Positions 778 through 53,580 of a stretch of 64,000 nt of DNA are shown here, piece by piece (the first letter of the stretch is position 1; every line of letters begins with the position of its first letter). The stretch is from Candidatus Dojkabacteria bacterium. GTDB lineage: Bacteria; Patescibacteriota; Dojkabacteria; SC72. The notes beneath the pieces are model-generated. The model did no database searches. It was not told the origin of the DNA and saw only the letters and a program-made list of their open reading frames with translations. The stretch lies in NCBI GenBank assembly GCA_050950165.1, contig JBMNHC010000001.1, positions 529,073-593,072 of the forward strand, in the 5' to 3' direction. The translations under genes and the position numbers were made by a program.

Positions 778-915
778 GCTTCACCCACCCCGGTTTGACG
801 GAGGCCTTTTGTATAATAAAAAACTCGTAAGAGTATAAATAAAAACAAGAGACCTCCGTTCGAACCCCCTAGATAAAAACACTTCAAAAATAATAAAAAA
901 TATATATAATGAGAT

Positions 916-3741
916 ATGAACATCTCATTTTTTTTGTTTAAAAATCGAAAGAAACTAATTATATATCTAATAGGTCTAACATTAATACTCTTTCTTGTAT
1001 ATTGGTTTATACTTAGATACCCAGGCTATATATACTATTGGGATTTAAGTGGAGCTTTTGATTTCAGAGACCCATTTAGCCAATACTTCAACATATACAC
1101 CCCTTGGGATGGTAACAATATTGGAGTAAGAAATAGGTTACCTATTGTATTTACTTTATATTTATTACTCAAACCATTACTACTTGTTGGAGTAAGTAAT
1201 GAGATAGTGATTAAGGTAGCTACTACACTACTGTTTGTAGGAGGATATACTGTGATGTATTTTCTAGCTCCTAAGTTTGTAAAGATATTTGCTAAAACAG
1301 AAGTAGAAAGACAATCAGGAATATATATATGGGCATTATTAATAGCACTACTCTACTCCTTTATACCTTTTTATGTGTATAGAGTATCTCAATTACATCT
1401 ATTTTATATGAGTGTATTCTATCCTTTACATATATATCTTTTTATTAAACTATTTGAATCTAAGAAGTTTAATCCAAGATATATTGTTTTTTTTGTAATA
1501 TCTATGTTCTTTGGATTAACTACTCCTAATATAATTGTGTTTGAACTATTTACTTTCATTGTATTAGGAATAGTACTTCTGATATCTAGAATAAAAGATA
1601 AGGAAGGTATTAAAGTAGTTATTACTAATTTTCTTCTTGCAGGAGTATTTGTATTTGTTACAAATATATATTGGATATTCCCCTATTTTATTCAAGGTTC
1701 TCCTCAACCAGGGTATGTTATTAATTCAACAATGATAGATTTGTTGTCTCAGGGAATTACATTTAAGAATTTCTTACTTGGACAGTCTGAATGGTTTGTT
1801 AATCAAGGAGATTTAGGTATTTTGGAAACCAAAGATGATGCAATACACCTACTTCAAATATTTGGTATTTCTATCTTTTATACTGTTTCCTTAATAGCTT
1901 TAGTTAGATATATTAAAAAGAGATATATAGTACCAATTGTCATATTTCTTTTAATATCTCCTCTACTCATATTTAATTTACTACCGTTTCAGAAGGAGCT
2001 ACAAGAAGCTCTGGTATACTCTCCTTTGGGATGGATATTTAGAGAGGTAAATAGGGTATCTTTTTTCTGGGCGTTCTGGACATTTATTCTCTTTTTAGTA
2101 GGTACATACTCTTTGTATGAAAGTATCCTGTTAGATGGGAGATTGAATAGGATATTGAAGATTATTGTATTTCCAGCAATATTTATTCCTTTCATTATCT
2201 TCCTTCTACCAGTAAATATTAAGTTCTTTCAATACCTCAAACCGATTGAAATACCAAATGAAGTCAATGAGATTTTTAAAGTACTTGAAGAAGATGAAGA
2301 GTATTTTAGTGTTCTATACTATCCCAATGTAGACTCATACTCTATACCTTGGATGAAGGATAAGTTCCCTATTGCTGATGCTGAAGAGTATAAATTACTA
2401 GCGTACAATTCTCCAAAGCCTCCTGTTGGAATTAGTAGTGTCATACCAAACGCTAAGACATATCAAGAACTTCTAACGGAGTATTTAATACAAAATAGGG
2501 AGATATTTCCCAATTTATCTCACCTTCTATCAGGTATAGGTGTTAAATATATTGTAGTGAATAAAACAGCAGAACCAATTAATATAAATGTTGATTATGT
2601 TAGAGCAGAGGTAGTATATCCTGTCTATCTATACCTACAAAACAGTGAAGAGTTTGAAGAGGTCTTAGTTAACAATTACTATGTTCTTTTCAAAAATAAT
2701 GATTTTAGGGGAGTTATTTCTAATGGAAACAACGATATATATACAACTGCATCATTTAATATTTTAGAGCATATTCATCCTGATATTGTAAAAAAATATA
2801 ATGTTAAATTTTGTGGATTTAAAGAAAATTACAGAGAGTGTTTTGAGAAGGGAAGATTTAAGAAAACTTTCTTTAAGTACGAAAAAGATACTTACTTCTA
2901 TTTAGATTTCCTTACAAAAGAAGAGAAAGAGAAATATGGAGTATATGTATATGATTATACTTCTGAACATAGAGTAGGATTAGATTGGGGAAGGGCATCA
3001 TATTACGATAAGGTAAATGGAGAACTTCATAATATTTTTAGAAGGTACGGTATTAGTGGGTGGGACTTCGAAATTACAGATAAGGTTGTTTATTCAGACT
3101 TACCCTTTATTAAAAAAGATGAAGGATATAAATCATCTATATCTTTAAAAAATGAAATAGAGTGTGTGGGAGAGTGTGAAGTGTATGCATACATACTCTA
3201 TAACCATATTGGTGGAGAGTTAGAAATAGAGGTTGGAGATAATAGGTATGAGATAGATACCCAAAGTGATTTTGAGGTATACAGATGGACAAAGTTAGGA
3301 GATATTGATATTGGAAATCCTGAGTTGGATTTTAGTATAGAGAATAGTAATGGATTTGCTAGTATTGGAGGAATTCTGATTCTTCCTAAATCTTTAATGA
3401 CAAAACTTGATGAGAGAATATCTGAGATATCATTTTTAGATGTAGCTGAGGACTCAGTAATTCCTATGGGAGATATTAATATCTCTCCAGATAGTTGTAA
3501 TTTTACAGATATACAGTACAGACATAATAGAATTACTGCTTTTACAGATTGCGAAGATACTAGAAATATATATCTAAGCAATTACTATTATGACTATATA
3601 GTAGATAGAAAAGATGATAGGGTTGAGATAGTACTTAATAACTATAAAAATGTTTATTTAATGTTTTTATTCTTTAGCTCAGCAGTACTTCCTATCTTAG
3701 TAGTAACACTTCTAACTTTGTCTAAAAAGAGGCGTGTCTGA
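916..3741 (+). CDS. large polytopic membrane protein (N-terminal about 470 aa with many TM helices, C-terminal about 470 aa soluble domain plus C-terminal TM); possible GT-C-type glycosyltransferase/oligosaccharide transferase-like
   Basis: 941-aa ORF; hydrophobic-segment pattern typical of GT-C fold membrane enzymes; no PglB/AglB WWDYG motif found; adjacent to GT4 glycosyltransferase. Confidence 0.5.
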   Translation: MNISFFLFKNRKKLIIYLIGLTLILFLVYWFILRYPGYIYYWDLSGAFDFRDPFSQYFNIYTPWDGNNIGVRNRLPIVFTLYLLLKPLLLVGVSNEIVIKVATTLLFVGGYTVMYFLAPKFVKIFAKTEVERQSGIYIWALLIALLYSFIPFYVYRVSQLHLFYMSVFYPLHIYLFIKLFESKKFNPRYIVFFVISMFFGLTTPNIIVFELFTFIVLGIVLLISRIKDKEGIKVVITNFLLAGVFVFVTNIYWIFPYFIQGSPQPGYVINSTMIDLLSQGITFKNFLLGQSEWFVNQGDLGILETKDDAIHLLQIFGISIFYTVSLIALVRYIKKRYIVPIVIFLLISPLLIFNLLPFQKELQEALVYSPLGWIFREVNRVSFFWAFWTFILFLVGTYSLYESILLDGRLNRILKIIVFPAIFIPFIIFLLPVNIKFFQYLKPIEIPNEVNEIFKVLEEDEEYFSVLYYPNVDSYSIPWMKDKFPIADAEEYKLLAYNSPKPPVGISSVIPNAKTYQELLTEYLIQNREIFPNLSHLLSGIGVKYIVVNKTAEPININVDYVRAEVVYPVYLYLQNSEEFEEVLVNNYYVLFKNNDFRGVISNGNNDIYTTASFNILEHIHPDIVKKYNVKFCGFKENYRECFEKGRFKKTFFKYEKDTYFYLDFLTKEEKEKYGVYVYDYTSEHRVGLDWGRASYYDKVNGELHNIFRRYGISGWDFEITDKVVYSDLPFIKKDEGYKSSISLKNEIECVGECEVYAYILYNHIGGELEIEVGDNRYEIDTQSDFEVYRWTKLGDIDIGNPELDFSIENSNGFASIGGILILPKSLMTKLDERISEISFLDVAEDSVIPMGDINISPDSCNFTDIQYRHNRITAFTDCEDTRNIYLSNYYYDYIVDRKDDRVEIVLNNYKNVYLMFLFFSSAVLPILVVTLLTLSKKRRV

Positions 3742-4820
3742 TTACTCCATTCAAAGTTTGTTGCCCATTTAATACAGTTATTCTGCTTACTAACATATTC
3801 TTCACTATTTGTTTGAATTCCCTCTATAGCTTCTTTCCAAGTTTCTTTTAAAGAGTTTTGTATAAAGTAACCAGTTTTATCACTAACACTATCTATTAAT
3901 CCAGGAACAGGATAACAGATGGTTGGAGTTCCTTTAGCTGCTGCCTCTATTACAGTAATTCCCCACCCTTCTTTTCTTGAAAATTGAACATGTAAGTGAG
4001 CTTTATCAAGAAGATCTTCTTTCTCTTGCTCTGAAATATATCCAAGAAATTTAACATTTTCATCAAGACCTTTCTCTTTTACTAGAGCTTTTAATCTAGT
4101 CTCATCCTCTCCCTTACCTGCAATTTTAAGAATAATGTTGTTAATATTTAGTTGTTTTTTTGAATACTCAATCATTTCAATTGCCTCCTCTATATGCTTC
4201 GTAGCCTTAATTCTTCCAAGAGAAACGATAAGGATGGGATCATTTTTCTTTTCTACTCTGTTTAGAACTTTTACATCTATACCGTTATATATAATGGTAA
4301 GATTCTTCTCTTTAAAACCATTTGATATTAGATCTTTTTTAGAAGAGGGAGAAACAGTAACTATATTCTTTTCTCTTTTATAGATCAAAGTAGTCATTTT
4401 TGTAAAAATGAAAGAGGCAATACCTCCAAGAAAAGTTCCGTATGCAGAAATCCACTCAGGAGATTGTAGATGATGTATTACAGTTATGTTATTTCTGTTA
4501 TAAAGGGGAATATTGAACGGTACAGCATTAAAGTTCTCTATTAAAAGATTACTCTCTTTTTTAAGATTAAAGATGTAGTAGAGAGGAGCAAGGATATAGA
4601 GGGAGATAGAGTTTCCCATCCTGATATACTCTATACCATCTCTAATTTCTTCTTTTTTAGAACCTTTATACCTTGAGGTAAGATATTTAACTGTATATCC
4701 ATTGTCTCTTAGAGTTTCAACCATCTTTGTGATATATACTTCTGCTCCTCCTGCTTCTGGATGCCAGATATCTCTCCATGCCATTACTACAATATTTTTA
4801 TTCTCTTTCATAGATTTCAA
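3654..4820 (-). CDS. glycosyltransferase family 4 (GT-B, retaining)
   Basis: 388 aa; N-terminal WHPEAGGAE motif and C-terminal EGWGITVIEAAAKGTPTI (E-X7-E) motif characteristic of GT4; 3' end overlaps convergent gene 916..3741 by 88 nt. Confidence 0.85.
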   Translation of the reverse strand: MKSMKENKNIVVMAWRDIWHPEAGGAEVYITKMVETLRDNGYTVKYLTSRYKGSKKEEIRDGIEYIRMGNSISLYILAPLYYIFNLKKESNLLIENFNAVPFNIPLYNRNNITVIHHLQSPEWISAYGTFLGGIASFIFTKMTTLIYKREKNIVTVSPSSKKDLISNGFKEKNLTIIYNGIDVKVLNRVEKKNDPILIVSLGRIKATKHIEEAIEMIEYSKKQLNINNIILKIAGKGEDETRLKALVKEKGLDENVKFLGYISEQEKEDLLDKAHLHVQFSRKEGWGITVIEAAAKGTPTICYPVPGLIDSVSDKTGYFIQNSLKETWKEAIEGIQTNSEEYVSKQNNCIKWATNFEWSNQTRLFLDKVRSVTTKIGSTAELKNKNIK

Positions 4821-6390
4821 AATATTCGTTATAACTTATCTTTCTTAACCCCTCAATCAATGCCCTACTCTTTTGAATAGCAAAGTCATCGAGATTAATT
4901 TCTGCACTTCTGTCATAGATAACATATTCAATATCATCAGGGATAAGTCCACTGTTGAATATCTCTTCATACGTTGGTGCATATTCATATAGATTTGCAC
5001 CATCCACTATCTCCGAGTTATTAATATATGAGATGAAATCAGAACCGTAGTAGCCCCAGTTATACTCTCTCATGTATAGCTTTTGGGGACTTGGAAGAAT
5101 TAATATCTTTGAATCTCTTGGAATATTAAAATACTCTTGAGGAATATTGACTTCTGTTTTTGAAGAGATCAAATTACCACTTAATACAGGATATGAATAG
5201 AGGATAAGGCTAATTAGAATGATTGGAAGGATAATCTTGCGTAGTTTAGTAAGATGAGAGATTGTAATTGCGCAAAGAAGAGTTAAAGGTAATACATATA
5301 TTGGCCATAGCTTACTTGAGGGCCATCTTAAGGCTTCTTTGATAAACGGAATTTTTTCAATTACAGAAACACCAAATCTACTGGATAGGAAAAGGAAGAG
5401 TAAAAGGAAGGTAGTAAGTCCAATTACTTTTTTACTTTTCTTAACGGTAAGTGCTAGAAGAGATAGTACAAAAGGTATTACTCCAAGTAAAGTATAAAAT
5501 ATATTCTCTTTATATATTTCATAATATTCAAATATAGGGGAGTTTGCAGAGTCGTGTAGCTCCATCCATCCCGTTGAGAAATTTGCAACATTAAGTAAAG
5601 AGTTTGTCTTTTCTGAGGCAATAATGCCTGAAGATATTCTATCCATATATGGATGTTGTACTAAATCTCTAATGTAGTTAAAAATTTGAACTATAAATAG
5701 AGAACTATCCCTATTAATCAACATTGTAAACTGTATTAAGATTAACCAAAAAAGTACTAATCCAGTAGCCCAAATTAAAAGTCTCTTAATATGAGAGTTC
5801 TTTTTAGAGAGTACGAAAGCTATTAAAACAATTTGAGATGTAAATAGCAAAAAAGCAACAATATTAAGTGATGTTGTAAGAAAAAGAATCGATAGAACAG
5901 AGATAAATATATAATCTCTCAGTATTAGTTTCTCACTTGAAAGGAAATATATTAATAGAGGAACAGTACCGTATGATGCGATAAAGAGAAAATTTGGATT
6001 TGAGAATATCCAGATAGAAAATAGACCTGTTATTAATACTATTGAAGAGAGTATCGAAGCTATACTACTTCTGGTAATACGTTTGGTTAAAAGTGCTACC
6101 CCAATTGAACCAAGTAGGAAATTGAATGATAGGTATAGATTGGAAATGATCTCTGGTGTTAATTGAAGGACTTTTAATAGATAGAGGAAGAGGGCTTGAA
6201 AGAGAATACCTCCATAGATAATTGCTGAGGTCCCTTTTATCCTTCCTAATATATCAGAAATATTAAAATATGGACTAGCATTATCCAAACCTATTACTAA
6301 TTTACTAAAGTCGAAGTTTAGGATAATTATCAGAAGAGATATACCTGTAACAATGATTAGGTAATAATTTTTTCTTAGGAAAGGAATCAT
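4798..6390 (-). CDS. polytopic integral membrane protein (about 12 TM) with C-terminal soluble domain; probable glycan polymerase/GT-C-like partner of the GT4
   Basis: 530 aa, mostly hydrophobic helices; 23-nt overlap with downstream GT4 gene suggests operon. Confidence 0.55.
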   Translation of the reverse strand: MIPFLRKNYYLIIVTGISLLIIILNFDFSKLVIGLDNASPYFNISDILGRIKGTSAIIYGGILFQALFLYLLKVLQLTPEIISNLYLSFNFLLGSIGVALLTKRITRSSIASILSSIVLITGLFSIWIFSNPNFLFIASYGTVPLLIYFLSSEKLILRDYIFISVLSILFLTTSLNIVAFLLFTSQIVLIAFVLSKKNSHIKRLLIWATGLVLFWLILIQFTMLINRDSSLFIVQIFNYIRDLVQHPYMDRISSGIIASEKTNSLLNVANFSTGWMELHDSANSPIFEYYEIYKENIFYTLLGVIPFVLSLLALTVKKSKKVIGLTTFLLLFLFLSSRFGVSVIEKIPFIKEALRWPSSKLWPIYVLPLTLLCAITISHLTKLRKIILPIILISLILYSYPVLSGNLISSKTEVNIPQEYFNIPRDSKILILPSPQKLYMREYNWGYYGSDFISYINNSEIVDGANLYEYAPTYEEIFNSGLIPDDIEYVIYDRSAEINLDDFAIQKSRALIEGLRKISYNEYFEIYERE

Positions 6391-6425: not shown

Positions 6426-6452
6426 AAAGACCCTCTTGCGAGGGTCTTTATA
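6426..6452 (-). terminator. rho-independent terminator hairpin (AGACCCTC-TTGC-GAGGGTCT) with T-run on minus strand
   Basis: perfect 8-bp GC-rich stem, 4-nt loop, followed by TTTTGTTTA on the minus strand just downstream of the 6458..6694 gene. Confidence 0.5.
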
Positions 6453-6457
6453 TCAAA

Positions 6458-6694
6458 TTACTTAAGAACTTTCTTCTTTAAAAATTTAGACCCTGTAATT
6501 AAAAGTACTCCACCAATATATGATGCAATACCTAGAAATACTAAGATGTCTAAATCTTCTAATCCTGTTGGAACAGGCTTATGAGGTCCATATGGATCAT
6601 AAGGACTGCCGTCAGCAAATACATTTGCTACGTTAGAAGATAATATTGTTAAAGAGATTAAAGTGCTAAGTAATAAAGTTTTAATCTTTCTCAT
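6458..6694 (-). CDS. small secreted protein with C-terminal cell-wall sorting-signal architecture (mini sortase substrate)
   Basis: 78 aa: N-terminal signal peptide (ends VFA/DG), short Pro/Tyr-rich mature region, KPVPTG motif, then hydrophobic helix and KKKVLK basic tail (tripartite sorting signal); sits next to a sortase gene. Confidence 0.5.
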   Translation of the reverse strand: MRKIKTLLLSTLISLTILSSNVANVFADGSPYDPYGPHKPVPTGLEDLDILVFLGIASYIGGVLLITGSKFLKKKVLK

Positions 6695-6762
6695 AGATAA
6701 GTAAGATTAAAAATTATTTAATTACAGGATAATTATAACATAAATAGATATATAATGCAACA

Positions 6763-7410
6763 CTATAGGGCAGTACTTTCTATTAGATTAGCATATCTAA
6801 AAATACGAACAGGTGTATTAAAGAATTTACAGGTATAGAGTATTAAATCGGCATTATAATCCGTAATATATGTTCCCTCCCCTTCTGCATATATCATGTA
6901 TCGAAATTTTCTCTGTTCCCATATTATTTCAATAATATCTCCATTCTTTGTTTTTGGTAGATTATAAAAAGATATTACATTTCTTGTCTCTTTAGTCCAT
7001 GATTTATATCCAAATCTATGTGCAGCAAGTATAATTGGAGTTTTACCATTCATTGGAGAACCGAATTCTGGTACCATCCATGTACCATTCCTAAGTGCAC
7101 TGATGTAGTCTTGCTCTGCAGATATTGGTGAGTTAATCCCTATACTAGGTATTCTAATGTATGGCTTAGTTGGTAATGAAAGATCAACAGGAGGTAGTAT
7201 ATCTTCCTCTACTACTTCAGTATTAATATTTTCTGTTGAAAATTCTTCTGTTAATGTTTCAATCTCTTTTTCAGTTTCTTTTGGATTAATATTGTAAACA
7301 ATGTAGGGTACTGTTGGTATTAAAAATACCCCTATTGAAACAACAACTAAAAGTATTCCAATGAACATATATAGGTTTGAAAGGTTTAAAAGAAATTTCT
7401 CTTTTTTCAT
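6763..7410 (-). CDS. sortase family transpeptidase
   Basis: 215 aa; N-terminal TM anchor; conserved sortase His (ILAAHRFGY), TLxTC-type catalytic Cys (LILYTCKF) and downstream Arg (RIFRY). Confidence 0.7.
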   Translation of the reverse strand: MKKEKFLLNLSNLYMFIGILLVVVSIGVFLIPTVPYIVYNINPKETEKEIETLTEEFSTENINTEVVEEDILPPVDLSLPTKPYIRIPSIGINSPISAEQDYISALRNGTWMVPEFGSPMNGKTPIILAAHRFGYKSWTKETRNVISFYNLPKTKNGDIIEIIWEQRKFRYMIYAEGEGTYITDYNADLILYTCKFFNTPVRIFRYANLIESTAL

Positions 7411-8214
7411 TTAGTTTTTACTTCTAAGATAGTTCTCTAGTATCATACCACTATTTATCATCTCTAGTGCATTACCCTTTCCAATATATCTGTAGTGCCA
7501 GCTTTCATGTTTATATCCAGTAATATGCTCATACCCTTTTGGATATGAGATTACGAAACCATATTTATACGCATTACTTTTCAACCATTTACTAGCTTTA
7601 GTATTAGAAAATCTATCTCCTAATGCATCCCCTATTTCATTTGTACTAAAATCGATAGTTGTTCCTAATTGATGCTGACTATGTCCTGCTCTTGCAGAGA
7701 ATGTATCTACATATTCTACATTATTATTATTTTTCTTCAGCCAGTAGTTATATGTACTTAGCTGTGTTTGATACGACCTGTATCCACTAACTATACTAAG
7801 ATCTATACCATCTGCTTTCGCATCAGATATCATATTAGTAAGATCAGCTATTAAGATATTTCTTAGGTAGTAACTGCTTCCTCTTCTAATACCTGAGTTA
7901 CTTGCTTTAACTAAATCCGATGGAGCGTATGTACTAGGAAGTTTGTACTGTTTATTAACAAGTACTAGTAAATGGTTTCCATTTTTAGTAGTTTCATATA
8001 TTGTATCTGGATATCTCCACCAACCATTAGTTGGTGTACTTTCTACTTTCTTCTCCTGGACTTTTTTAATAGGGGTACTATCTTCAGGGTAAACTACAGT
8101 GAAGATTTTCTCAATGGTCTCTTCTTTATCTTCTCTCCACTGCTCATCTTCTATCTTTTGAGGAAGAGAGAGTAAGAGTATAACTATCAAAATTGTAGTA
8201 AATATCTTTATCAT
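7411..8214 (-). CDS. D-alanyl-D-alanine carboxypeptidase, VanY/peptidase M15B family
   Basis: 267 aa with N-terminal anchor; M15B motifs SGYRSYQTQ, AGHSQHQLGTTIDF and ESWHYRYIG (EPWHxRYxG). Confidence 0.8.
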   Translation of the reverse strand: MIKIFTTILIVILLLSLPQKIEDEQWREDKEETIEKIFTVVYPEDSTPIKKVQEKKVESTPTNGWWRYPDTIYETTKNGNHLLVLVNKQYKLPSTYAPSDLVKASNSGIRRGSSYYLRNILIADLTNMISDAKADGIDLSIVSGYRSYQTQLSTYNYWLKKNNNNVEYVDTFSARAGHSQHQLGTTIDFSTNEIGDALGDRFSNTKASKWLKSNAYKYGFVISYPKGYEHITGYKHESWHYRYIGKGNALEMINSGMILENYLRSKN

Positions 8215-8672: not shown

Positions 8673-11600
8673 ATGGATACACTCGGAGGTCGATTTTTAA
8701 ATGAGAATCTAGGCGATTTATCAAGCTCTAAACATGTTCAATATGATGCTGAACAGAAAGGAATTACAGGGTCTCCTTCTGAAGAACAGATAGCATCATG
8801 GGTTGATACAGCAGTAGGGATTCATACCAAACACCGAGGCAATCCTCAGGTCATGGATAGGATTAAGGGATACTATCATAGGGAGTATGTAATCAAGGCT
8901 GAGGATTTTCCAGAGAGTTATTTTACTAATCAGCAGCAACAGGCACGTGAACTAGGTTATGGTGATATTGCGATACCAGATAGGGTTAGAGAGATGGGAA
9001 TAGATGCAATACAAAAGGATCAGAAGCAATCATTAGATTTATGGATAGACTATCTGAATTCTTCCGATTCAGATTATCTTCCTAGTTGGGTCAAGTATTG
9101 GGCATTTCATGGAGTGCTTAAGTTAGGAAGGTATAACAAGGAGACTGGAGATTTTGAGCCTCGTTTTAAAGATACCGTTTCCCCTTTTGTTGAGATAAAT
9201 AGTGAGGCATTAGCGTATGCATTAGATACTCTTCAGAAGAAGTATGGTAAAGAGTATTTTGATTTAACCGACCAGATATTTGCTAAGACAACGGCCCTTA
9301 ATAGAGCCGAGCGTTTATCAAGCCAGAAGGAGTTATTAGAATCAATAGATTCTCAGGGAGTTAATCAATCGGGTAAAGTAATCACAGTACTAGATGAGAA
9401 GTCAGGTAGACCTCGTCATTTAAAGAAAAAAGATATTGATCGAATACGGAAGGAGGTAGGTCAGTTTGAGGATTTTGATATTGAGGCTATGAAGAAAGAG
9501 ATAGAGTCTTTAACTACTCAAAGGGCTAATGTCTTAGAGTCACGTGGTGTTCCTCAAAAGTTTTCAGATATCGATAGTCGAGAAGAAGATTTTGGTAAGC
9601 TTTATGCTTATGCTATTAATGAGGTAACTCCAGTTAGTCAGAGTGAGCGAGAAATCACTTCAGGTCAATGGGTTAAGTATGCTCAAGGTTCAGATTACAA
9701 ACCTCTTTATGATTCTTTACAGGGTCATGGTACTGGTTGGTGCACAGCAGGAGGAGAGGAAACAGCAAGGATGCAATTAGAGGGAGGAGATTTTTATGTT
9801 TATTATTCCAATGATTTACACGGTCATCCTGTTAATCCTAGGATAGCAATCAGGATGAATGGTGATTATGAGATAGCAGAGATTAGGGGAGTAGAGCAGA
9901 ATCAGCAGATGGATAGTGAGATATTAGAGTCAGGAGTTTTGGAATCTAAGCTTAAAGATTTTGGAGATGAGGGAGATAAGTACAAACAGAGAGTTTATGA
10001 TATGAAGCGAGTAACTGAAATAGAGAAGAAGACTAATCAGGGCATAGATTTAACTAAAGATGAGCTTGAATTTATATATGAGGTGGATAGAGCTATAGAG
10101 GGATTTGGATATGAAAAAGATCCTAGGATAGAGGAGATACAGTCCACGAGAGATATAAAGAAAGATTTTGCTTGTTTAGTTGATCTGTCAGGTTCAGACT
10201 ATAGCTCTAGTTTATTAGTCAATACATTACTTGATAATGATTATGATAGAGCAGTTGTTCAGTATTTAGGTAATTTTTCAGATTTAGATAGTAGTGTTGC
10301 AAATAGGTTAATGGATTGTGGAGAAGCTTGGGCAGTTGCTAAGAATTTGAATAGCTTTTTAGGTTCAGCCCACAATGATATTGTTGATAGGTTAATAGAG
10401 AGAGGTCATGGTGGGTCAGTTGCAGGGAATTTAGCTAACTTTTCAGGCTTGGACCACAATGATATAATTTATAGATTAATAGATAGTGGTTGGCATAATG
10501 CAGTTATAAAACATTTGGATAGCTTTTCAGATTTAGATAGTGGTGTTGCAAATAAGTTAATAGATAGTGGTCATGGAGAGCAAATTGTTAAAAATTTAAA
10601 TAACTTTTCAAGTTCAGCCCATAGCGATATAGCTCGTATCTTAATAGATAGTAGTCATGGTAGGGTAGTTCTTGAGAATTTGAATGGTTTCTCAAGTTCA
10701 GCGCATAATGATATCGCTGATAAATTAATAGATAGTGGTAAGGGTGAAGCAGTTGCAGAAAATTTACCTAACTTTTCAAGTTCGGCCCATAGCGATATAG
10801 CTCATATGTTAATAGATAGTGGTTATGGTAGGTCAGTTGCAGAGAATTTGTCTAATTTCTCAGGCTTGGACTATAATGATATAGCTTATAGATTAATAGA
10901 TAGTGGTTATGGTAGGTCAGTTGCAGAGAATTTGTCTAATTTTTCAGGTTTGGACCACAATGATATAGCTAATAGGATGATAAAGAGAGGTGATGGTTGG
11001 GAAGTTGCTGAGAATATAAATAACTTTTCAAGCTCAGCCCATGGCGATATAGCTCGTATGTTAATAGATAGCGGTCGTGGTGAGCGAGTTGTTAAAAATT
11101 TACCTAACTTTTCAAGCTCAGCCCATGGCGATATAGCTCGTATGTTAATAGATAATGGTGAGGGTAAAACAGTTGCTCGTTATTTGCTTGATTTTTTAGG
11201 TTTAGACCACAATGATATAGCACATAGATTAATAGATAGTGGTGAGGGTGAAGCAGTTGCTCGTTATTTAAAGAATTTTTCCGGCTTAGACCATAATGAT
11301 ATAGCTCGTGTATTAATAGATAGTGGTTATGATAGGTCAGTTGCTAAGTATTTGTCTAATTTTTCAGGTTTAGATAGTAGTGTTGCAAATAAGTTAATAG
11401 ATAGTGGTGAAGGTTGGTCAGTTGCTAATTATTTAGAGAATTTTTCCGGCTTAGACCATGTAGATATTGCCCACAAGATTATACGTAGTGGCAAAGGTCA
11501 TGCAGTTGTTCGTTATTTGCCTAATTTCTCAGATTTAGACCACAATGATATAGCACATAGATTAATAGATAGTGGTGAGGGTCAAGCAGTTGCTAATTAT

Positions 11601-13310
11601 TTAGAGGATTTTTCCGGCTTAGACCATAATGATATAGCTCGTGTATTAATAGATAGTGGTTATGATAGGTCAGTTGCTAAGTATTTGTCTAATTTTTCAG
11701 GTTTAGATAGTAGTGTTGCAAATAAGTTAATAGATAGTAGTTATGGTAGGTCAGTTGCAAAGAATTTGCCTAATTTCTCAGATTTAGACCACAATGATAT
11801 AGCACATAGATTAATAGATAGTGGTGAGGGTAAAGCAGTTGTTAATTATTTAGAGAATTTTTCCGGCTTAGATAGTAGTGTTGCAAATAAGTTAATAGAT
11901 AGTGGTGAAGGTTGGTCAGTTGCTGGATATTTGTATAAATTTTCAGGTTTAGACCATAATGATATAGCTTATAGATTAATAGATAGTGGTGAGGGTCAAG
12001 CAGTTGCTGAGAATTTATATAATTTTTCCGGCTTAGACCATAATGATATCGCTTATAGATTAATAGATAGTGGTAAGGGTAAAGCAGTTGCTAATGATTT
12101 AAAGAATTTTTCCGGCTTAGACCATAATGATATAGCTCGTATGTTAATAGATAATGGTGAGGGTAAAACAGTTGCTCGTTATTTGCTTGATTTTTTAGGT
12201 TTAGACCACAATGATATAGCACATAGATTAATAGATAGTGGTGAGGGTGAAGCAGTTGCTCGTTATTTAAAGAATTTTTCCGGCTTAGACCATAATGATA
12301 TAGCTCGTGTATTAATAGATAGTGGTTATGATAGGTCAGTTGCTAAGTATTTGTCTAATTTTTCAGGTTTAGATAGTAGTGTTGCAAATAAGTTAATAGA
12401 TAGTGGTGAAGGTTGGTCAGTTGCTAATTATTTAGAGAATTTTTCCGGCTTAGACCATGTAGATATTGCCCACAAGATTATACGTAGTGGCAAAGGTCAT
12501 GCAGTTGTTCGTTATTTGCCTAATTTCTCAGATTTAGACCACAATGATATAGCACATAGATTAATAGATAGTGGTGAGGGTCAAGCAGTTGCTAATTATT
12601 TAGAGGATTTTTCCGGCTTAGACCATAATGATATAGCTTATAGATTAATAGATAGTGGTAAGGGTGAAGCAGTTGCTCAATATTTAAAGAATTTTTCCGG
12701 CTTAGACCACAATGATATAGCTCATAGGATAATAGATAGTGGTGAGGGTCAAGCAGTTGCTAATTATTTAGAGAATTTTTCCGGTTTAGATAGTAGTGTT
12801 GCAAATAAGTTAATAGATAGTAGTTATGGTAGGTCAGTTGCAAAGAATTTGCCTAATTTTTCCGGCTTAGATAAGAGTGTTGCAAATAAGTTAATAGATA
12901 GTGGTGAAGATAAAACAGTTGCTCGTTATTTGCGTAAATTTTCCGGTTTAGATAGTAGTGTTGCAAATAAGTTAATAGATATGGGTTATGGTTGGTCAGT
13001 TGTTGTGTATTTGTCTAATTTCTCCGGCTTAGACCATGTAGATATTGCCCACAAGATTATACGTAGTGGCAAAGGTGAAGCAGTTGCTCATTATTTAAAG
13101 AATTTTTCCGGCTTAGACCACAATGATATAGCTTATAGATTAATAGATAGTGGTGAGGGTAAAGCAGTTGTTTTTTATTTGGAGAACTTTTCCGGCTTAG
13201 ATAGCAGTGTTGCCAATATATTAATAGGTAAAGGTTATCGTGAGAGGGTTGCTAAAAACCTTTCTAGTTTTACAAACTTAGACAGTAGTGTTCTAGAGAA
13301 ATTAAAGTAA
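8673..13310 (+). CDS. giant tandem-repeat protein: about 500-aa N-terminal domain of unknown function followed by about 36 tandem 27/28-aa repeats (consensus NFSGLDHNDIAHRLIDSGEGEAVARYLK, alternating with a 27-aa DSSVANKLID variant)
   Basis: single uninterrupted 1545-aa ORF; no signal peptide or TM helix; repeats are in-frame 84/81-nt units with a few hypervariable positions. Confidence 0.85.
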   Translation: MDTLGGRFLNENLGDLSSSKHVQYDAEQKGITGSPSEEQIASWVDTAVGIHTKHRGNPQVMDRIKGYYHREYVIKAEDFPESYFTNQQQQARELGYGDIAIPDRVREMGIDAIQKDQKQSLDLWIDYLNSSDSDYLPSWVKYWAFHGVLKLGRYNKETGDFEPRFKDTVSPFVEINSEALAYALDTLQKKYGKEYFDLTDQIFAKTTALNRAERLSSQKELLESIDSQGVNQSGKVITVLDEKSGRPRHLKKKDIDRIRKEVGQFEDFDIEAMKKEIESLTTQRANVLESRGVPQKFSDIDSREEDFGKLYAYAINEVTPVSQSEREITSGQWVKYAQGSDYKPLYDSLQGHGTGWCTAGGEETARMQLEGGDFYVYYSNDLHGHPVNPRIAIRMNGDYEIAEIRGVEQNQQMDSEILESGVLESKLKDFGDEGDKYKQRVYDMKRVTEIEKKTNQGIDLTKDELEFIYEVDRAIEGFGYEKDPRIEEIQSTRDIKKDFACLVDLSGSDYSSSLLVNTLLDNDYDRAVVQYLGNFSDLDSSVANRLMDCGEAWAVAKNLNSFLGSAHNDIVDRLIERGHGGSVAGNLANFSGLDHNDIIYRLIDSGWHNAVIKHLDSFSDLDSGVANKLIDSGHGEQIVKNLNNFSSSAHSDIARILIDSSHGRVVLENLNGFSSSAHNDIADKLIDSGKGEAVAENLPNFSSSAHSDIAHMLIDSGYGRSVAENLSNFSGLDYNDIAYRLIDSGYGRSVAENLSNFSGLDHNDIANRMIKRGDGWEVAENINNFSSSAHGDIARMLIDSGRGERVVKNLPNFSSSAHGDIARMLIDNGEGKTVARYLLDFLGLDHNDIAHRLIDSGEGEAVARYLKNFSGLDHNDIARVLIDSGYDRSVAKYLSNFSGLDSSVANKLIDSGEGWSVANYLENFSGLDHVDIAHKIIRSGKGHAVVRYLPNFSDLDHNDIAHRLIDSGEGQAVANYLEDFSGLDHNDIARVLIDSGYDRSVAKYLSNFSGLDSSVANKLIDSSYGRSVAKNLPNFSDLDHNDIAHRLIDSGEGKAVVNYLENFSGLDSSVANKLIDSGEGWSVAGYLYKFSGLDHNDIAYRLIDSGEGQAVAENLYNFSGLDHNDIAYRLIDSGKGKAVANDLKNFSGLDHNDIARMLIDNGEGKTVARYLLDFLGLDHNDIAHRLIDSGEGEAVARYLKNFSGLDHNDIARVLIDSGYDRSVAKYLSNFSGLDSSVANKLIDSGEGWSVANYLENFSGLDHVDIAHKIIRSGKGHAVVRYLPNFSDLDHNDIAHRLIDSGEGQAVANYLEDFSGLDHNDIAYRLIDSGKGEAVAQYLKNFSGLDHNDIAHRIIDSGEGQAVANYLENFSGLDSSVANKLIDSSYGRSVAKNLPNFSGLDKSVANKLIDSGEDKTVARYLRKFSGLDSSVANKLIDMGYGWSVVVYLSNFSGLDHVDIAHKIIRSGKGEAVAHYLKNFSGLDHNDIAYRLIDSGEGKAVVFYLENFSGLDSSVANILIGKGYRERVAKNLSSFTNLDSSVLEKLK
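11131..11639 (+). repeat. copy 1 of a 509-bp perfect direct repeat (second copy at 12130..12638), spanning about 6 repeat units
   Basis: the nucleotide strings are identical over 509 bp at an offset of 999 bp; the encoded 170-aa segments are identical. Confidence 0.85.
12130..12638 (+). repeat. copy 2 of the 509-bp perfect direct repeat
   Basis: identical to 11131..11639. Confidence 0.85.
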
Positions 13311-51870: not shown

Positions 51871-52569
51871 CTATGTGTTTTTGTACAATTTGTCCAGTTT
51901 TCCTACTACTACTAGTCTCTGTTTATCACTCCAAAGGGGTGTACATGTTACTAATGTAATTCTGTAATCTTCGAAGTTTTTAAGTAAAGAGATATTATTT
52001 TTCTCAACAACTGATACCTCTGTAACTATATATGTATAGCTGTTATCTATCTGTTCTACATTAATTTTATCTCCTACCTTTACCTTATCTAAGTTAAAAA
52101 AAGTATCTTTACTAGGAGGTAGTTTTGCATATCTATGCCCTATTACCACAAAATTGCCTCTTTGACCTGGGTGCTGTGATGTTGGAAAGTGCCAGAATCC
52201 TCTGTTCATTGTAGTTGCAGATATTCCTTCAAAGATATTACCCTCTACGCTAACAGAATTAATGAAGAGTTTAGTGTCTAACTGTTCTAATATTTTCTCA
52301 TCTAGTACGAGATTAGAATCTAAGCTCTCTTCCATACTCTGTGCGAAACTCTTTATCTCCTCTACTCCCTCTACTTTGTCTCTGGTTGGAGATATTTTAG
52401 TTAGTAATTGGAATGTAATTTCTTCAGATATTCTCTGTATATTGAATCTTTTTATAGGTCCAATTAATTGGTTGTAGTTTGGATATATTAGAAAGAGTAA
52501 AAGAGGTAGTAGAAAGGCTAAAAGAAGTAGTAAGGAGATGGTAAATTTTAGTATCCAGTTTTTTCTCAT
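51871..52569 (-). CDS. sortase family transpeptidase
   Basis: 232 aa; N-terminal TM anchor; VVIGHRY (His), ITLVTCTP (TLxTC catalytic Cys), QRLVVVG (Arg). Confidence 0.8.
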   Translation of the reverse strand: MRKNWILKFTISLLLLLAFLLPLLLFLIYPNYNQLIGPIKRFNIQRISEEITFQLLTKISPTRDKVEGVEEIKSFAQSMEESLDSNLVLDEKILEQLDTKLFINSVSVEGNIFEGISATTMNRGFWHFPTSQHPGQRGNFVVIGHRYAKLPPSKDTFFNLDKVKVGDKINVEQIDNSYTYIVTEVSVVEKNNISLLKNFEDYRITLVTCTPLWSDKQRLVVVGKLDKLYKNT

Positions 52570-52656: not shown

Positions 52657-53580
52657 GTGGCTAAGAATAAAAATAGTAAAATTGCTGCCCCTAAAAAAAC
52701 TGCAAAGCAGGAGAGTATGAAGAGTAAGGTTGAGATTAAACAACCAGTTAGGAATAGACAGGAGAGAATGTCTAGATTGGTTGGTTCAATCTTTATCGGT
52801 TTAGGAGTACTACTTGTTGCTTTCGGTATATATTCATTTATCAGATTCAGAGAGGAGCCTGTTTTAAATATTGAATTAGAGGCACCTGTGTTAAGTGAGG
52901 TAACACAGATTACTAATGAGAAAGAGATTACGGTTAGAGGTTTAGCTTCTGGATATGATGATGTCTATATATATGTTAATGATGTAAAGATTGGAAGTAG
53001 TAAAGTAAATAGTGAGTCGGAGTTTCTTTATAGGTATAGCGTAGAGAGTGAGGGAGAGTTTGCTGTTAATGTAGCAGGTGTTAAAGGTTTTCCAAATAGA
53101 GTAATTGGTCCTAGAAGTGAGATTAAAGTAGCTAAGGTAGACTGGAGTGCACCTTCGCAAGATTCAATATCATTTAAGTATGGAGAGGAGACTAACAAGG
53201 ATACCTTTATCATTGCAGGGAATGCAGAGGCTCTAAGTTCAGTTATCGTTAAAAGAGGAACTCTTAGCTATGATACTATTGCAGATGCAGATGGTAAATT
53301 TAGAATAGAGGGTATAGATTTAGAAGAAGGTAAGAATGTATTTACACTAACAGTTAGGGATCAGGCTGGTAATGAAACTGTATTGGATGAAAAGGTAAGA
53401 GTAACCTACTCTCCTTTAGGTAGTGTAAATGGAGATGCAGTAGTAGATGAGAATATTCCTCAAGCATCTGGTGAGTTAGATGTACTTTTGGGAAATAGCT
53501 TGATGATGGTATTTGCAATAGTGGCACTACTAGCATTTGCTACTAGTTTTCTATCACTTTCATACCACAAAAGAAGGTAG
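52657..53580 (+). CDS. surface protein with N-terminal signal-anchor and C-terminal sorting-signal-like tail; putative sortase substrate
   Basis: 307 aa; Lys-rich N-terminus plus TM; beta-rich Ig-like middle; C-terminus IPQASGE followed by a 22-aa hydrophobic helix and HKRR; divergent from the adjacent sortase gene. Confidence 0.5.
   Translation: MAKNKNSKIAAPKKTAKQESMKSKVEIKQPVRNRQERMSRLVGSIFIGLGVLLVAFGIYSFIRFREEPVLNIELEAPVLSEVTQITNEKEITVRGLASGYDDVYIYVNDVKIGSSKVNSESEFLYRYSVESEGEFAVNVAGVKGFPNRVIGPRSEIKVAKVDWSAPSQDSISFKYGEETNKDTFIIAGNAEALSSVIVKRGTLSYDTIADADGKFRIEGIDLEEGKNVFTLTVRDQAGNETVLDEKVRVTYSPLGSVNGDAVVDENIPQASGELDVLLGNSLMMVFAIVALLAFATSFLSLSYHKRR

Follow-up and report, generated by a model that had tools for sequence, protein, structure and literature searches.

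The established tasks of sortases are the anchoring of folded surface proteins and the building of pili, and some of these enzymes are encoded directly beside a target, examples being the SrtB-IsdC (NPQTN) pair of staphylococci and the class GN 'marine' sortase, which has a single target. Very small proteins can also be joined to the wall: Braun's lipoprotein of Escherichia coli (Lpp), a lipoprotein made as a 78-aa precursor, is linked covalently through its C-terminal Lys to peptidoglycan stem peptides by L,D-transpeptidases, an attachment which depends on stem trimming and which tethers the outer membrane. The closest analogy to the locus described here is the accessory sortase encoded beside a single substrate in oral streptococci, abpA-srtB, where a dedicated sortase lies next to one substrate with a non-canonical signal (PMC4974636). 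Sortases are also common in the candidate phyla radiation (CPR) (PMC6744442). Here we describe a gene cluster comprising a sortase, a 78-aa protein and an M15B peptidase in a 64,000-nt stretch (hereafter the window; positions 529,073 to 593,072 of contig JBMNHC010000001.1) from Candidatus Dojkabacteria, a tiny-genome bacterium of the CPR/Patescibacteria; the G+C content is 31-38%. What is new is the exceptional smallness of the cargo and the shifted recognition motif of what we take to be a dedicated sortase-substrate system. We favour, as probable rather than secure, the interpretation that the pair fixes a short peptide to peptidoglycan, assisted in the Dojkabacteria by an accessory peptidase.

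The cluster consists of three consecutive open reading frames (ORFs) on the minus strand, in the adjacent arrangement first recognized in the initial annotation. An LdcB-like M15B (VanY-domain) peptidoglycan peptidase of 267 aa with an N-terminal membrane anchor (7411-8214) is followed by a divergent sortase of 215 aa (6763-7410), made up of an N-terminal transmembrane helix, a linker and a catalytic domain, and then by the 78-aa ORF (6458-6694), which encodes the putative sortase-substrate precursor referred to below as the mini protein. Read from the sequence, the stop codon of the peptidase abuts the start codon of the sortase. A 68-nt spacer (6695-6762, minus strand), a candidate mini promoter region, separates the sortase from the mini gene and holds a perfect TATAAT (6737-6732) 17 nt after TTGCAT (6760-6755), a -35 hexamer that matches the consensus at 3/6 positions. 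On sequence grounds this TATAAT may tentatively be taken as the mini gene's own promoter; a consensus promoter scan of the region gave 7 sites against 13.1 expected in shuffled sequence and, owing to the incomplete -35 match, did not call it. An intrinsic terminator on the same strand (6426-6449), with a 10-bp stem AAAGACCCTC...GAGGGTCTTT and then a T-run, lies 9 nt past the mini stop codon.

The 78-aa ORF is a real and widespread gene, well beyond anything expected by chance. An NCBI entry from a Dojkabacteria metagenome-assembled genome (MAG), annotated 'hypothetical protein', matches its product at 100% identity; the product belongs to no Pfam or NCBIfam family (the libraries scanned were Pfam-A and NCBIfam release 20), and the gene shows a ratio of nonsynonymous to synonymous substitution rates (dN/dS) of 0.08-0.44 across four close orthologues of 69-85% identity. 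When 1.84 billion cluster representatives were searched exhaustively with the mini-family profile in HMMER (E<=0.001, clusters at 50% identity), 176 clusters were returned, almost all of them 49-130 aa in length; the family is therefore small by design and not a set of fragments. The exceptions in size are a tandem double, P0262, and two long proteins, P0241 (5048 aa, without an aligned stretch) and P0349 (875 aa, repeats), which were rejected as large substrates because they look like repeat or low-complexity matches. P0262 (172 aa) carries two mini units in one ORF, each with a signal-like segment and a sorting signal, its motif being degenerate (...PSPTVNAG...); it represents a tandem duplication or else a fusion by read-through. 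A large protein with the same signal was found neither by regular expression in the 64-kb window and ~850 kb of related loci nor by the exhaustive profile search. The view that the ORF is spurious, or a fragment of a larger gene, draws on its small size and its 'hypothetical protein' annotation and on nothing else; set against the dN/dS values, the 176 equally small clusters, the conserved synteny described below and the gene's own terminator, its probability is negligible, and we consider it ruled out by substitution pattern, family size and synteny.

The mini precursor displays the layout of a cell-wall sorting substrate, with an N-terminal signal peptide and, at the extreme C-terminus, a hydrophobic segment with a basic tail, as seen in the sequence and in an AlphaFold2 (AF2) model that comprises a helix at residues 2-20, coil at 21-44 and a second helix at 45-77. 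All its parts are encoded on the minus strand. Residues 1-27 (MRKIKTLLLSTLISLTILSSNVANVFA; 6614-6694) form the signal peptide, consisting of MRKIK, a hydrophobic core and VFA, with a predicted signal peptidase I cut between A27 and D28. A27, the residue at -1 of this site, shows 99% conservation, and 93% of sequences have V, A or I at -3 (these and the column figures that follow are from 145 family representatives). The predicted mature cargo, D28-T43 (DGSPYDPYGPHKPVPT; 6566-6613), is Pro/Tyr/His-rich and modelled as coil, and the sorting motif H38-K-P40-V-P-T43-G44 (6563-6583) contains the predicted scissile bond T43-G44; the stretches across this predicted sortase site read YGPHKPVPTGLEDLD and PYGPHKPVPTGLEDLD. 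Beyond the bond the sequence continues as GLEDLD, ILVFLGIASYIGGVLLITG and SKFLKKKVLK, so that the membrane-retention part (6461-6562) presents the acidic LEDLD, the transmembrane helix I50-G68 and the basic tail. This order, in which an acidic stretch leads into ~19 hydrophobic residues and the protein then ends in a Lys/Arg tail, is that of the family. Removal of the signal peptide would leave ~51 aa, of which 16 lie N-terminal to the T-G bond, in close agreement with the about 50 and about 16 residues proposed from the first reading of the sequence.

The conserved core of the family can be written A(-1 of the signal peptide)...Y..H-x-P-x-x-T-G. The motif H, P, T and G are invariant in 38 family sequences with identities down to 22%, and in the wider set of representatives conservation is 92% for H38, 94% for P40, 86% for T43 (Ala in 12%) and 74% for G44. 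Constraint is strongest at A27 and at H38/P40/T43, that is at both predicted processing sites, and at Tyr35 in the cargo (99%), the remaining cargo and transmembrane sequence varying freely. The motif takes the form P-[VIE]-x-T-G, its Pro occupying P4 and a His P6, which places the Pro one position farther from the scissile bond than in LPXTG. The proposal that KPVPTG belongs to a tripartite cell-wall sorting signal thus holds for the three-part architecture, which is conserved, but not for its register, which is P-x-x-T-G preceded by His and not L-P-x-T-G. The window mini protein lacks the L-P-x-T-G pentapeptide and has no match to the LPXTG_anchor model TIGR01167, which is matched weakly by 7/38 family members (best E 7e-4). 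Several distant minis (L066, L067, L071, L073, L074 and L077) read H.PVDTS, H.PVDTA or H.PVDTF, and one reads HKTVEAG; the replacement of the Gly after Thr in these proteins means that a P1' Gly is not obligatory in the family.

Cargo lengths, counted from one predicted processing site to the other, are 11-30 residues, and two styles of cargo occur. One, to which the 16-aa window member belongs, is PY-rich with the form (G)NPYGPYNPYxPH; the other is a Cys loop, C.Q.YGGGVVCG.H. The suggestion that the mini protein is a pilin-like polymerizable unit was ruled out, since the cargo has no conserved pilin-motif Lys such as serves as nucleophile in class C sortase systems: K39, the sole cargo Lys, falls in a column occupied by E in 21%, T in 19% and I in 14% of representatives, and many members have no Lys before the motif.

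To establish the genomic context, 80 loci were gathered from GTDB species representatives with the sortase as anchor. In 68 of the 80 a profile hidden Markov model finds exactly one mini gene, on the sortase strand and <=1.7 kb downstream, so that homologues of the mini protein do lie beside sortases in related genomes, with the small ORF and its motif conserved. Of the 12 loci without a mini match, six lie where the contig ends within 1 kb. Dojkabacteria-type sortase-M15B-mini clusters are found on many contigs (L007-L085) titled 'uncultured Candidatus Saccharibacteria', and on one, L085, titled 'uncultured Gammaproteobacteria'; these titles are probably loose or wrong labels from automated MAG submissions. 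The Cys-loop subfamily (P0206-P0240; L085-L091), with the pattern ...C[TP]Q.YGGGVVCG.H.PV.TG..., occurs in another lineage of the Patescibacteria, and there the mini gene always directly follows a sortase of 227-261 aa. Its surroundings are rpsA, a radA-like gene, sortase, mini, an unassigned gene, a gene for a ~900-aa protein and rho, with no M15B gene.

The partner enzyme is a sortase by family and by fold. It matches Pfam PF04203 (MEROPS C60) with 35.2 bits against a cut-off of 26.6, and the His, the Cys of LILYTC and the Arg picked out in the initial annotation correspond to H131 (AAHRF), C194 (LILYTCK) and R202/R205, which are invariant in 20 sortase orthologues with identities down to 48%. 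The AF2 model (predicted local distance difference test score, pLDDT, 84) has a hydrophobic helix within residues 2-41 that would serve as the N-terminal membrane anchor, and its catalytic domain is predicted to adopt the eight-stranded β-barrel of sortases, as indicated jointly by Pfam, AF2 and Foldseek. Foldseek returned 134 PDB matches at E<=0.001, the best 50 of the 134 all being sortases, with SrtA of S. pyogenes as best match (E 6e-9, template modelling score 0.65 on the target). Comparison with the NCBIfam models NF033745-NF033748, TIGR03784 and TIGR01076, covering classes A-F and GN, reached no class cut-off: class C scored 26.2 bits against 160, TIGR01076 15.8 against 39.35, and no other class gave a match. 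The sortase family profile likewise found no solved sortase below E 0.9 among PDB sequences. An assignment to a class was tried and abandoned, the scores lying below every NCBIfam cut-off and the fold search matching classes A, C, D and E about equally. The enzyme is accordingly treated as a member of an unclassified, CPR-centred clade, and it is not a class A housekeeping enzyme.

A second, more ordinary sortase in the window bears on how such pairs are matched. It is encoded at 51871-52569 (minus strand; 232 aa, Pfam 93.8 bits), is nearest to class E, scoring below the cut-off for that class, and is 25% identical to the first. It is divergently transcribed from the gene for a 307-aa Ig-like (Big_13/Big_6) protein (52657-53580, plus strand) that has an N-terminal transmembrane segment and ends in ...IPQASGELD, a transmembrane segment and HKRR; in the orthologous pair of L092, the one further locus found for the second sortase in metagenomes, the corresponding end is ...LPESAGLFE, a transmembrane segment and KRK. 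These termini suggest a second dedicated pair with the motif [IL]P[QE][AS][SA]G. The presence of two sortases, each beside a gene with a private motif, supports the idea that each enzyme serves its neighbour and that the two form cognate pairs.

By analogy with characterized sortases the following sequence of events can be proposed. The 78-aa precursor would leave the cytoplasm through Sec, signal peptidase I would cleave it after Ala27, and the C-terminal helix and Lys-rich tail would then hold it in the membrane, where the adjacent membrane-anchored sortase would recognize H-x-P-x-x-T-G. Cys194 would attack the Thr43-Gly44 bond to give a thioester with the 16-residue Pro/Tyr/His-rich peptide. 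This thioester would be resolved by an amine, the likeliest being a side-chain or cross-bridge amine of lipid II or of the peptidoglycan stem peptide, and the outcome would be a wall that carries a short, uniform peptide. Within that compartment, stem peptides would lose their C-terminal D-Ala residue(s) to the co-transcribed peptidase (M15B, LdcB/VanY-like). The proposal is favoured by the architecture of the precursor, the constraint on its processing sites, the one-to-one pairing of the genes, the small size of family members throughout, the sortase fold with its invariant His, Cys and Arg, the second sortase with its own neighbour, the M15B linkage in three gene orders and the abpA-srtB precedent.

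A number of points weigh against this proposal. The comparisons above show the gene, its architecture, the motif, the conserved adjacency and the sortase fold with its catalytic residues; both cleavages, the wall acceptor and the specificity of the peptidase are inferred. The motif is not LPXTG, having its Pro at P4, and the P1' Gly is replaced by A, S, D or F in ~25% of representatives, so that recognition rules are not transferable from the known classes. The mini gene went undetected in five of the more divergent sortase loci, each of which has 2 kb or more of sequence downstream, and the M15B gene is absent from the loci of the Cys-loop lineage, outside the Dojkabacteria. Finally, the conserved Gly62 and aromatic positions of the transmembrane helix are unusual for a disposable signal and could indicate a separate role for the membrane part.

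The last of these points is also what brings forward a different reading, in which the mini protein stays uncleaved and, as a single-pass membrane protein, works together with the sortase or with wall synthesis, whether as scaffold, as regulator or as pseudo-substrate, with H-x-P-x-x-T-G as a binding motif. Position 62 is G or S in 92% of representatives and position 59 is aromatic, a degree of conservation which exceeds the needs of a throw-away anchor; the P1' Gly is replaced in about one quarter of representatives, and one-to-one pairing of the genes would fit a subunit equally well. The grammar of a sorting signal is nevertheless kept throughout the family, from the motif through 5-8 residues and ~19 hydrophobic positions to the basic tail at the extreme C-terminus, and few columns are as conserved as that of the Thr which corresponds to the sortase P1 residue. 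We therefore regard an uncleaved partner as improbable.

Another reading is that the peptide is not attached to the wall at all. The sortase could instead be a maturation or release enzyme that cleaves the T-G bond, with water or the α-amine of a peptide resolving the thioester to yield a free, head-to-tail cyclized or polymerized short peptide serving as signal, antimicrobial or matrix. A cargo of just 11-30 aa, disulfide-constrained in one subfamily (C.Q.YGGGVVCG), resembles secreted bioactive peptides. Gly is common at predicted mature positions +2 (89%) and +3 (51%), and Gly-rich N-termini are good nucleophiles for class A sortases. Polymerization of a substrate in vitro has been reported for SrtB with AbpA (PMC4974636). 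On the other side, the +1 residue is not conserved (A in 31%, D in 27% and E in 14%), the Cys-loop members starting with Glu, Asp or Gln, and no receptor kinase, transporter or immunity gene is conserved beside the sortase-mini pair. We also know of no natural free or cyclic peptide made by a sortase. Release of the peptide thus appears unlikely, if less so than an uncleaved mini protein, and anchoring to the wall is the reading that we retain.

The contribution of the peptidase to such anchoring can be judged from its family and its distribution. It matches Pfam VanY with E 4e-39 (133.9 bits), and every NCBIfam score is below its cut-off: 120 against 275 for LdcB (NF041194), 105 against 250 for vanXY and 96 against 400 for vanY_BG. 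The closest solved structures are those of the LdcB group (4MPH, 4JID and 4OX3, E ~5e-38), VanY and VanXY following at 1e-19 to 1e-20, and the Zn-binding elements SxHxxGxAxD and ExWH are represented by SQHQLGTTID and ESWHYRY, which align to LdcB 4MPH. By sequence comparison, then, the peptidase is nearer to the LdcB LD-carboxypeptidases than to VanY. Because every NCBIfam equivalog score is below cut-off, no LD or DD assignment is made, and the description of the enzyme as a D,D-carboxypeptidase in the initial annotation is not established, the best NCBIfam match and the solved relatives being LdcB LD-carboxypeptidases.

The M15B gene lies on the sortase strand in 68 of the 80 loci and does so in three gene orders: 33 loci have it immediately upstream of the sortase and 15 have it upstream but separated by an insertion, while it lies between sortase and mini in 19 loci and, at a contig end, downstream in 1. 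A linkage that outlasts rearrangement argues for a functional tie within the Dojkabacteria, and to our knowledge a conserved M15B linkage to a sortase-substrate pair has not been described. An apparent 487-aa sortase-M15B fusion in L033 (402-1865), which would have provided Rosetta-stone evidence, was rejected as an artefact, the ORF spanning a run of N (a masked gap). In the Cys-loop lineage the sortase-mini pair occurs without the peptidase, which is therefore accessory and not part of the core. Of the coordinated remodelling by VanY trimming and sortase that had been suggested at the outset, the genomic linkage in 68/80 Dojkabacteria loci stands; the DD activity is not established, and the Cys-loop branch lacks the enzyme altogether. 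Taken further, the two activities may be complementary. The sortase might cap a free stem-peptide amine with a short uniform peptide while the M15B enzyme removes the donor D-Ala, in what would be a previously unrecognized, lineage-wide wall-modification system of the CPR that tunes cross-linking or provides anchorage for a surface glycan or for contact with a host; here the sortase reaction would matter more than any displayed domain. We put this forward as doubtful.

Genes further along the strand point to one more possible role for the peptide. Directly after the mini gene, in the window and in close relatives, lies a gene for a 530-aa polytopic membrane protein (4798-6390, minus strand), which is overlapped by 23 nt by the gene for a glycosyltransferase of family 4 (GT4; 3654-4820, minus strand). 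The membrane domain of the 530-aa protein is homologous to proteins of 900-1050 aa whose genes, in distant lineages, lie no more than ~6 kb from the sortase-mini pair (L015 9210-12377; L085 8416-11352; and downstream genes of L086, L088 and L090), with E 1e-17 to 2e-36 between members; neither it nor these relatives have a Pfam match or a match to PDB sequences. The peptide could on this basis be a glycan carrier, its Tyr or Thr residues being glycosylated by the neighbouring glycosyltransferases before the sortase fixes the glycopeptide to the wall as a glycan linkage unit. The conserved Tyr35 would suit such a function, as would the recurrence of the membrane domain within 6 kb of the pair, and a precedent exists in Actinomyces oris GspA, a small glycosylated sortase substrate. 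The 530-aa protein is, however, without a recognizable family or solved relative, which makes a glycosyltransferase role for it a guess, the GT4 linkage is limited to close relatives, and the wider association is loose in both distance and strand. A glycan carrier consequently seems to us a long way less probable than attachment of the peptide as such.

Two large proteins are also encoded near the cluster. Divergent from the peptidase gene, at 8673-13310 (plus strand), is a gene for a 1545-aa protein with an N-terminal domain of ~480 aa followed by ~30 tandem repeats of 28 aa (84 nt) with the pattern NFSGLDHNDIAxRLIDSGxGxAVAxxL. The protein lacks a signal peptide and belongs to no genuine Pfam family, each match being listed with zero significant stretches. 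A 941-aa protein (913-3741, plus strand) has no Pfam family and no sortase-like motif, ends in a transmembrane segment with a KKRR tail, and is kept beside the cluster in the close relatives L006 and L007.

The cell envelope of CPR bacteria, which are thought to live attached to other cells, is almost unstudied, and the mini family, with 176 clusters across many lineages, provides a concrete and testable feature of it. Neither full-text searches of the literature nor Pfam-A nor NCBIfam release 20 yielded a description of the mini substrate, of the H-x-P-x-x-T-G motif or of the M15B link. If the interpretation offered here is correct, the attachment of a cargo of ~11-30 residues through a non-LPXTG motif widens the known uses of sortases to an unusually small and so far undescribed kind of cargo, and H-x-P-x-x-T-G adds a recognition motif for sortase-mediated ligation. 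The mini gene is at present annotated as a 'hypothetical protein', and a family model can be built directly from these data.

Comparison with the known systems places the locus among them as follows. With SrtA of S. aureus and its LPXTG substrates it shares the signal peptide, the T-G bond within a short Pro-containing motif, the transmembrane segment, the positive tail and the sortase fold with its His-Cys-Arg triad, but the Pro register is shifted, the His at P6 is conserved and the match to TIGR01167 is confined to the few family members noted above. The Dojkabacteria sortase is ~22-24% identical to SrtA in structural alignment and is not a housekeeping enzyme with many substrates. The likeness to Lpp lies in a very small, single-purpose protein with a 78-aa precursor and attachment to the stem peptide; here, in contrast, joining would be the work of a sortase and would run through a C-terminal Thr, leaving a product without a membrane anchor. 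The peptidase resembles the M15B enzymes LdcB and VanY in having a VanY domain with the Zn-binding elements and differs from them in scoring below every equivalog cut-off. The abpA-srtB type is alike in having a sortase beside one cognate substrate with a private motif variant, a hydrophobic segment and a basic tail, and in having a separate, more general sortase elsewhere in the genome. The system described here differs from it in a cargo of ~11-30 residues in place of a folded domain, in H-x-P-x-x-T-G with its Pro at P4, in a sortase outside the named classes, in its CPR host and in the co-encoded M15B peptidase.

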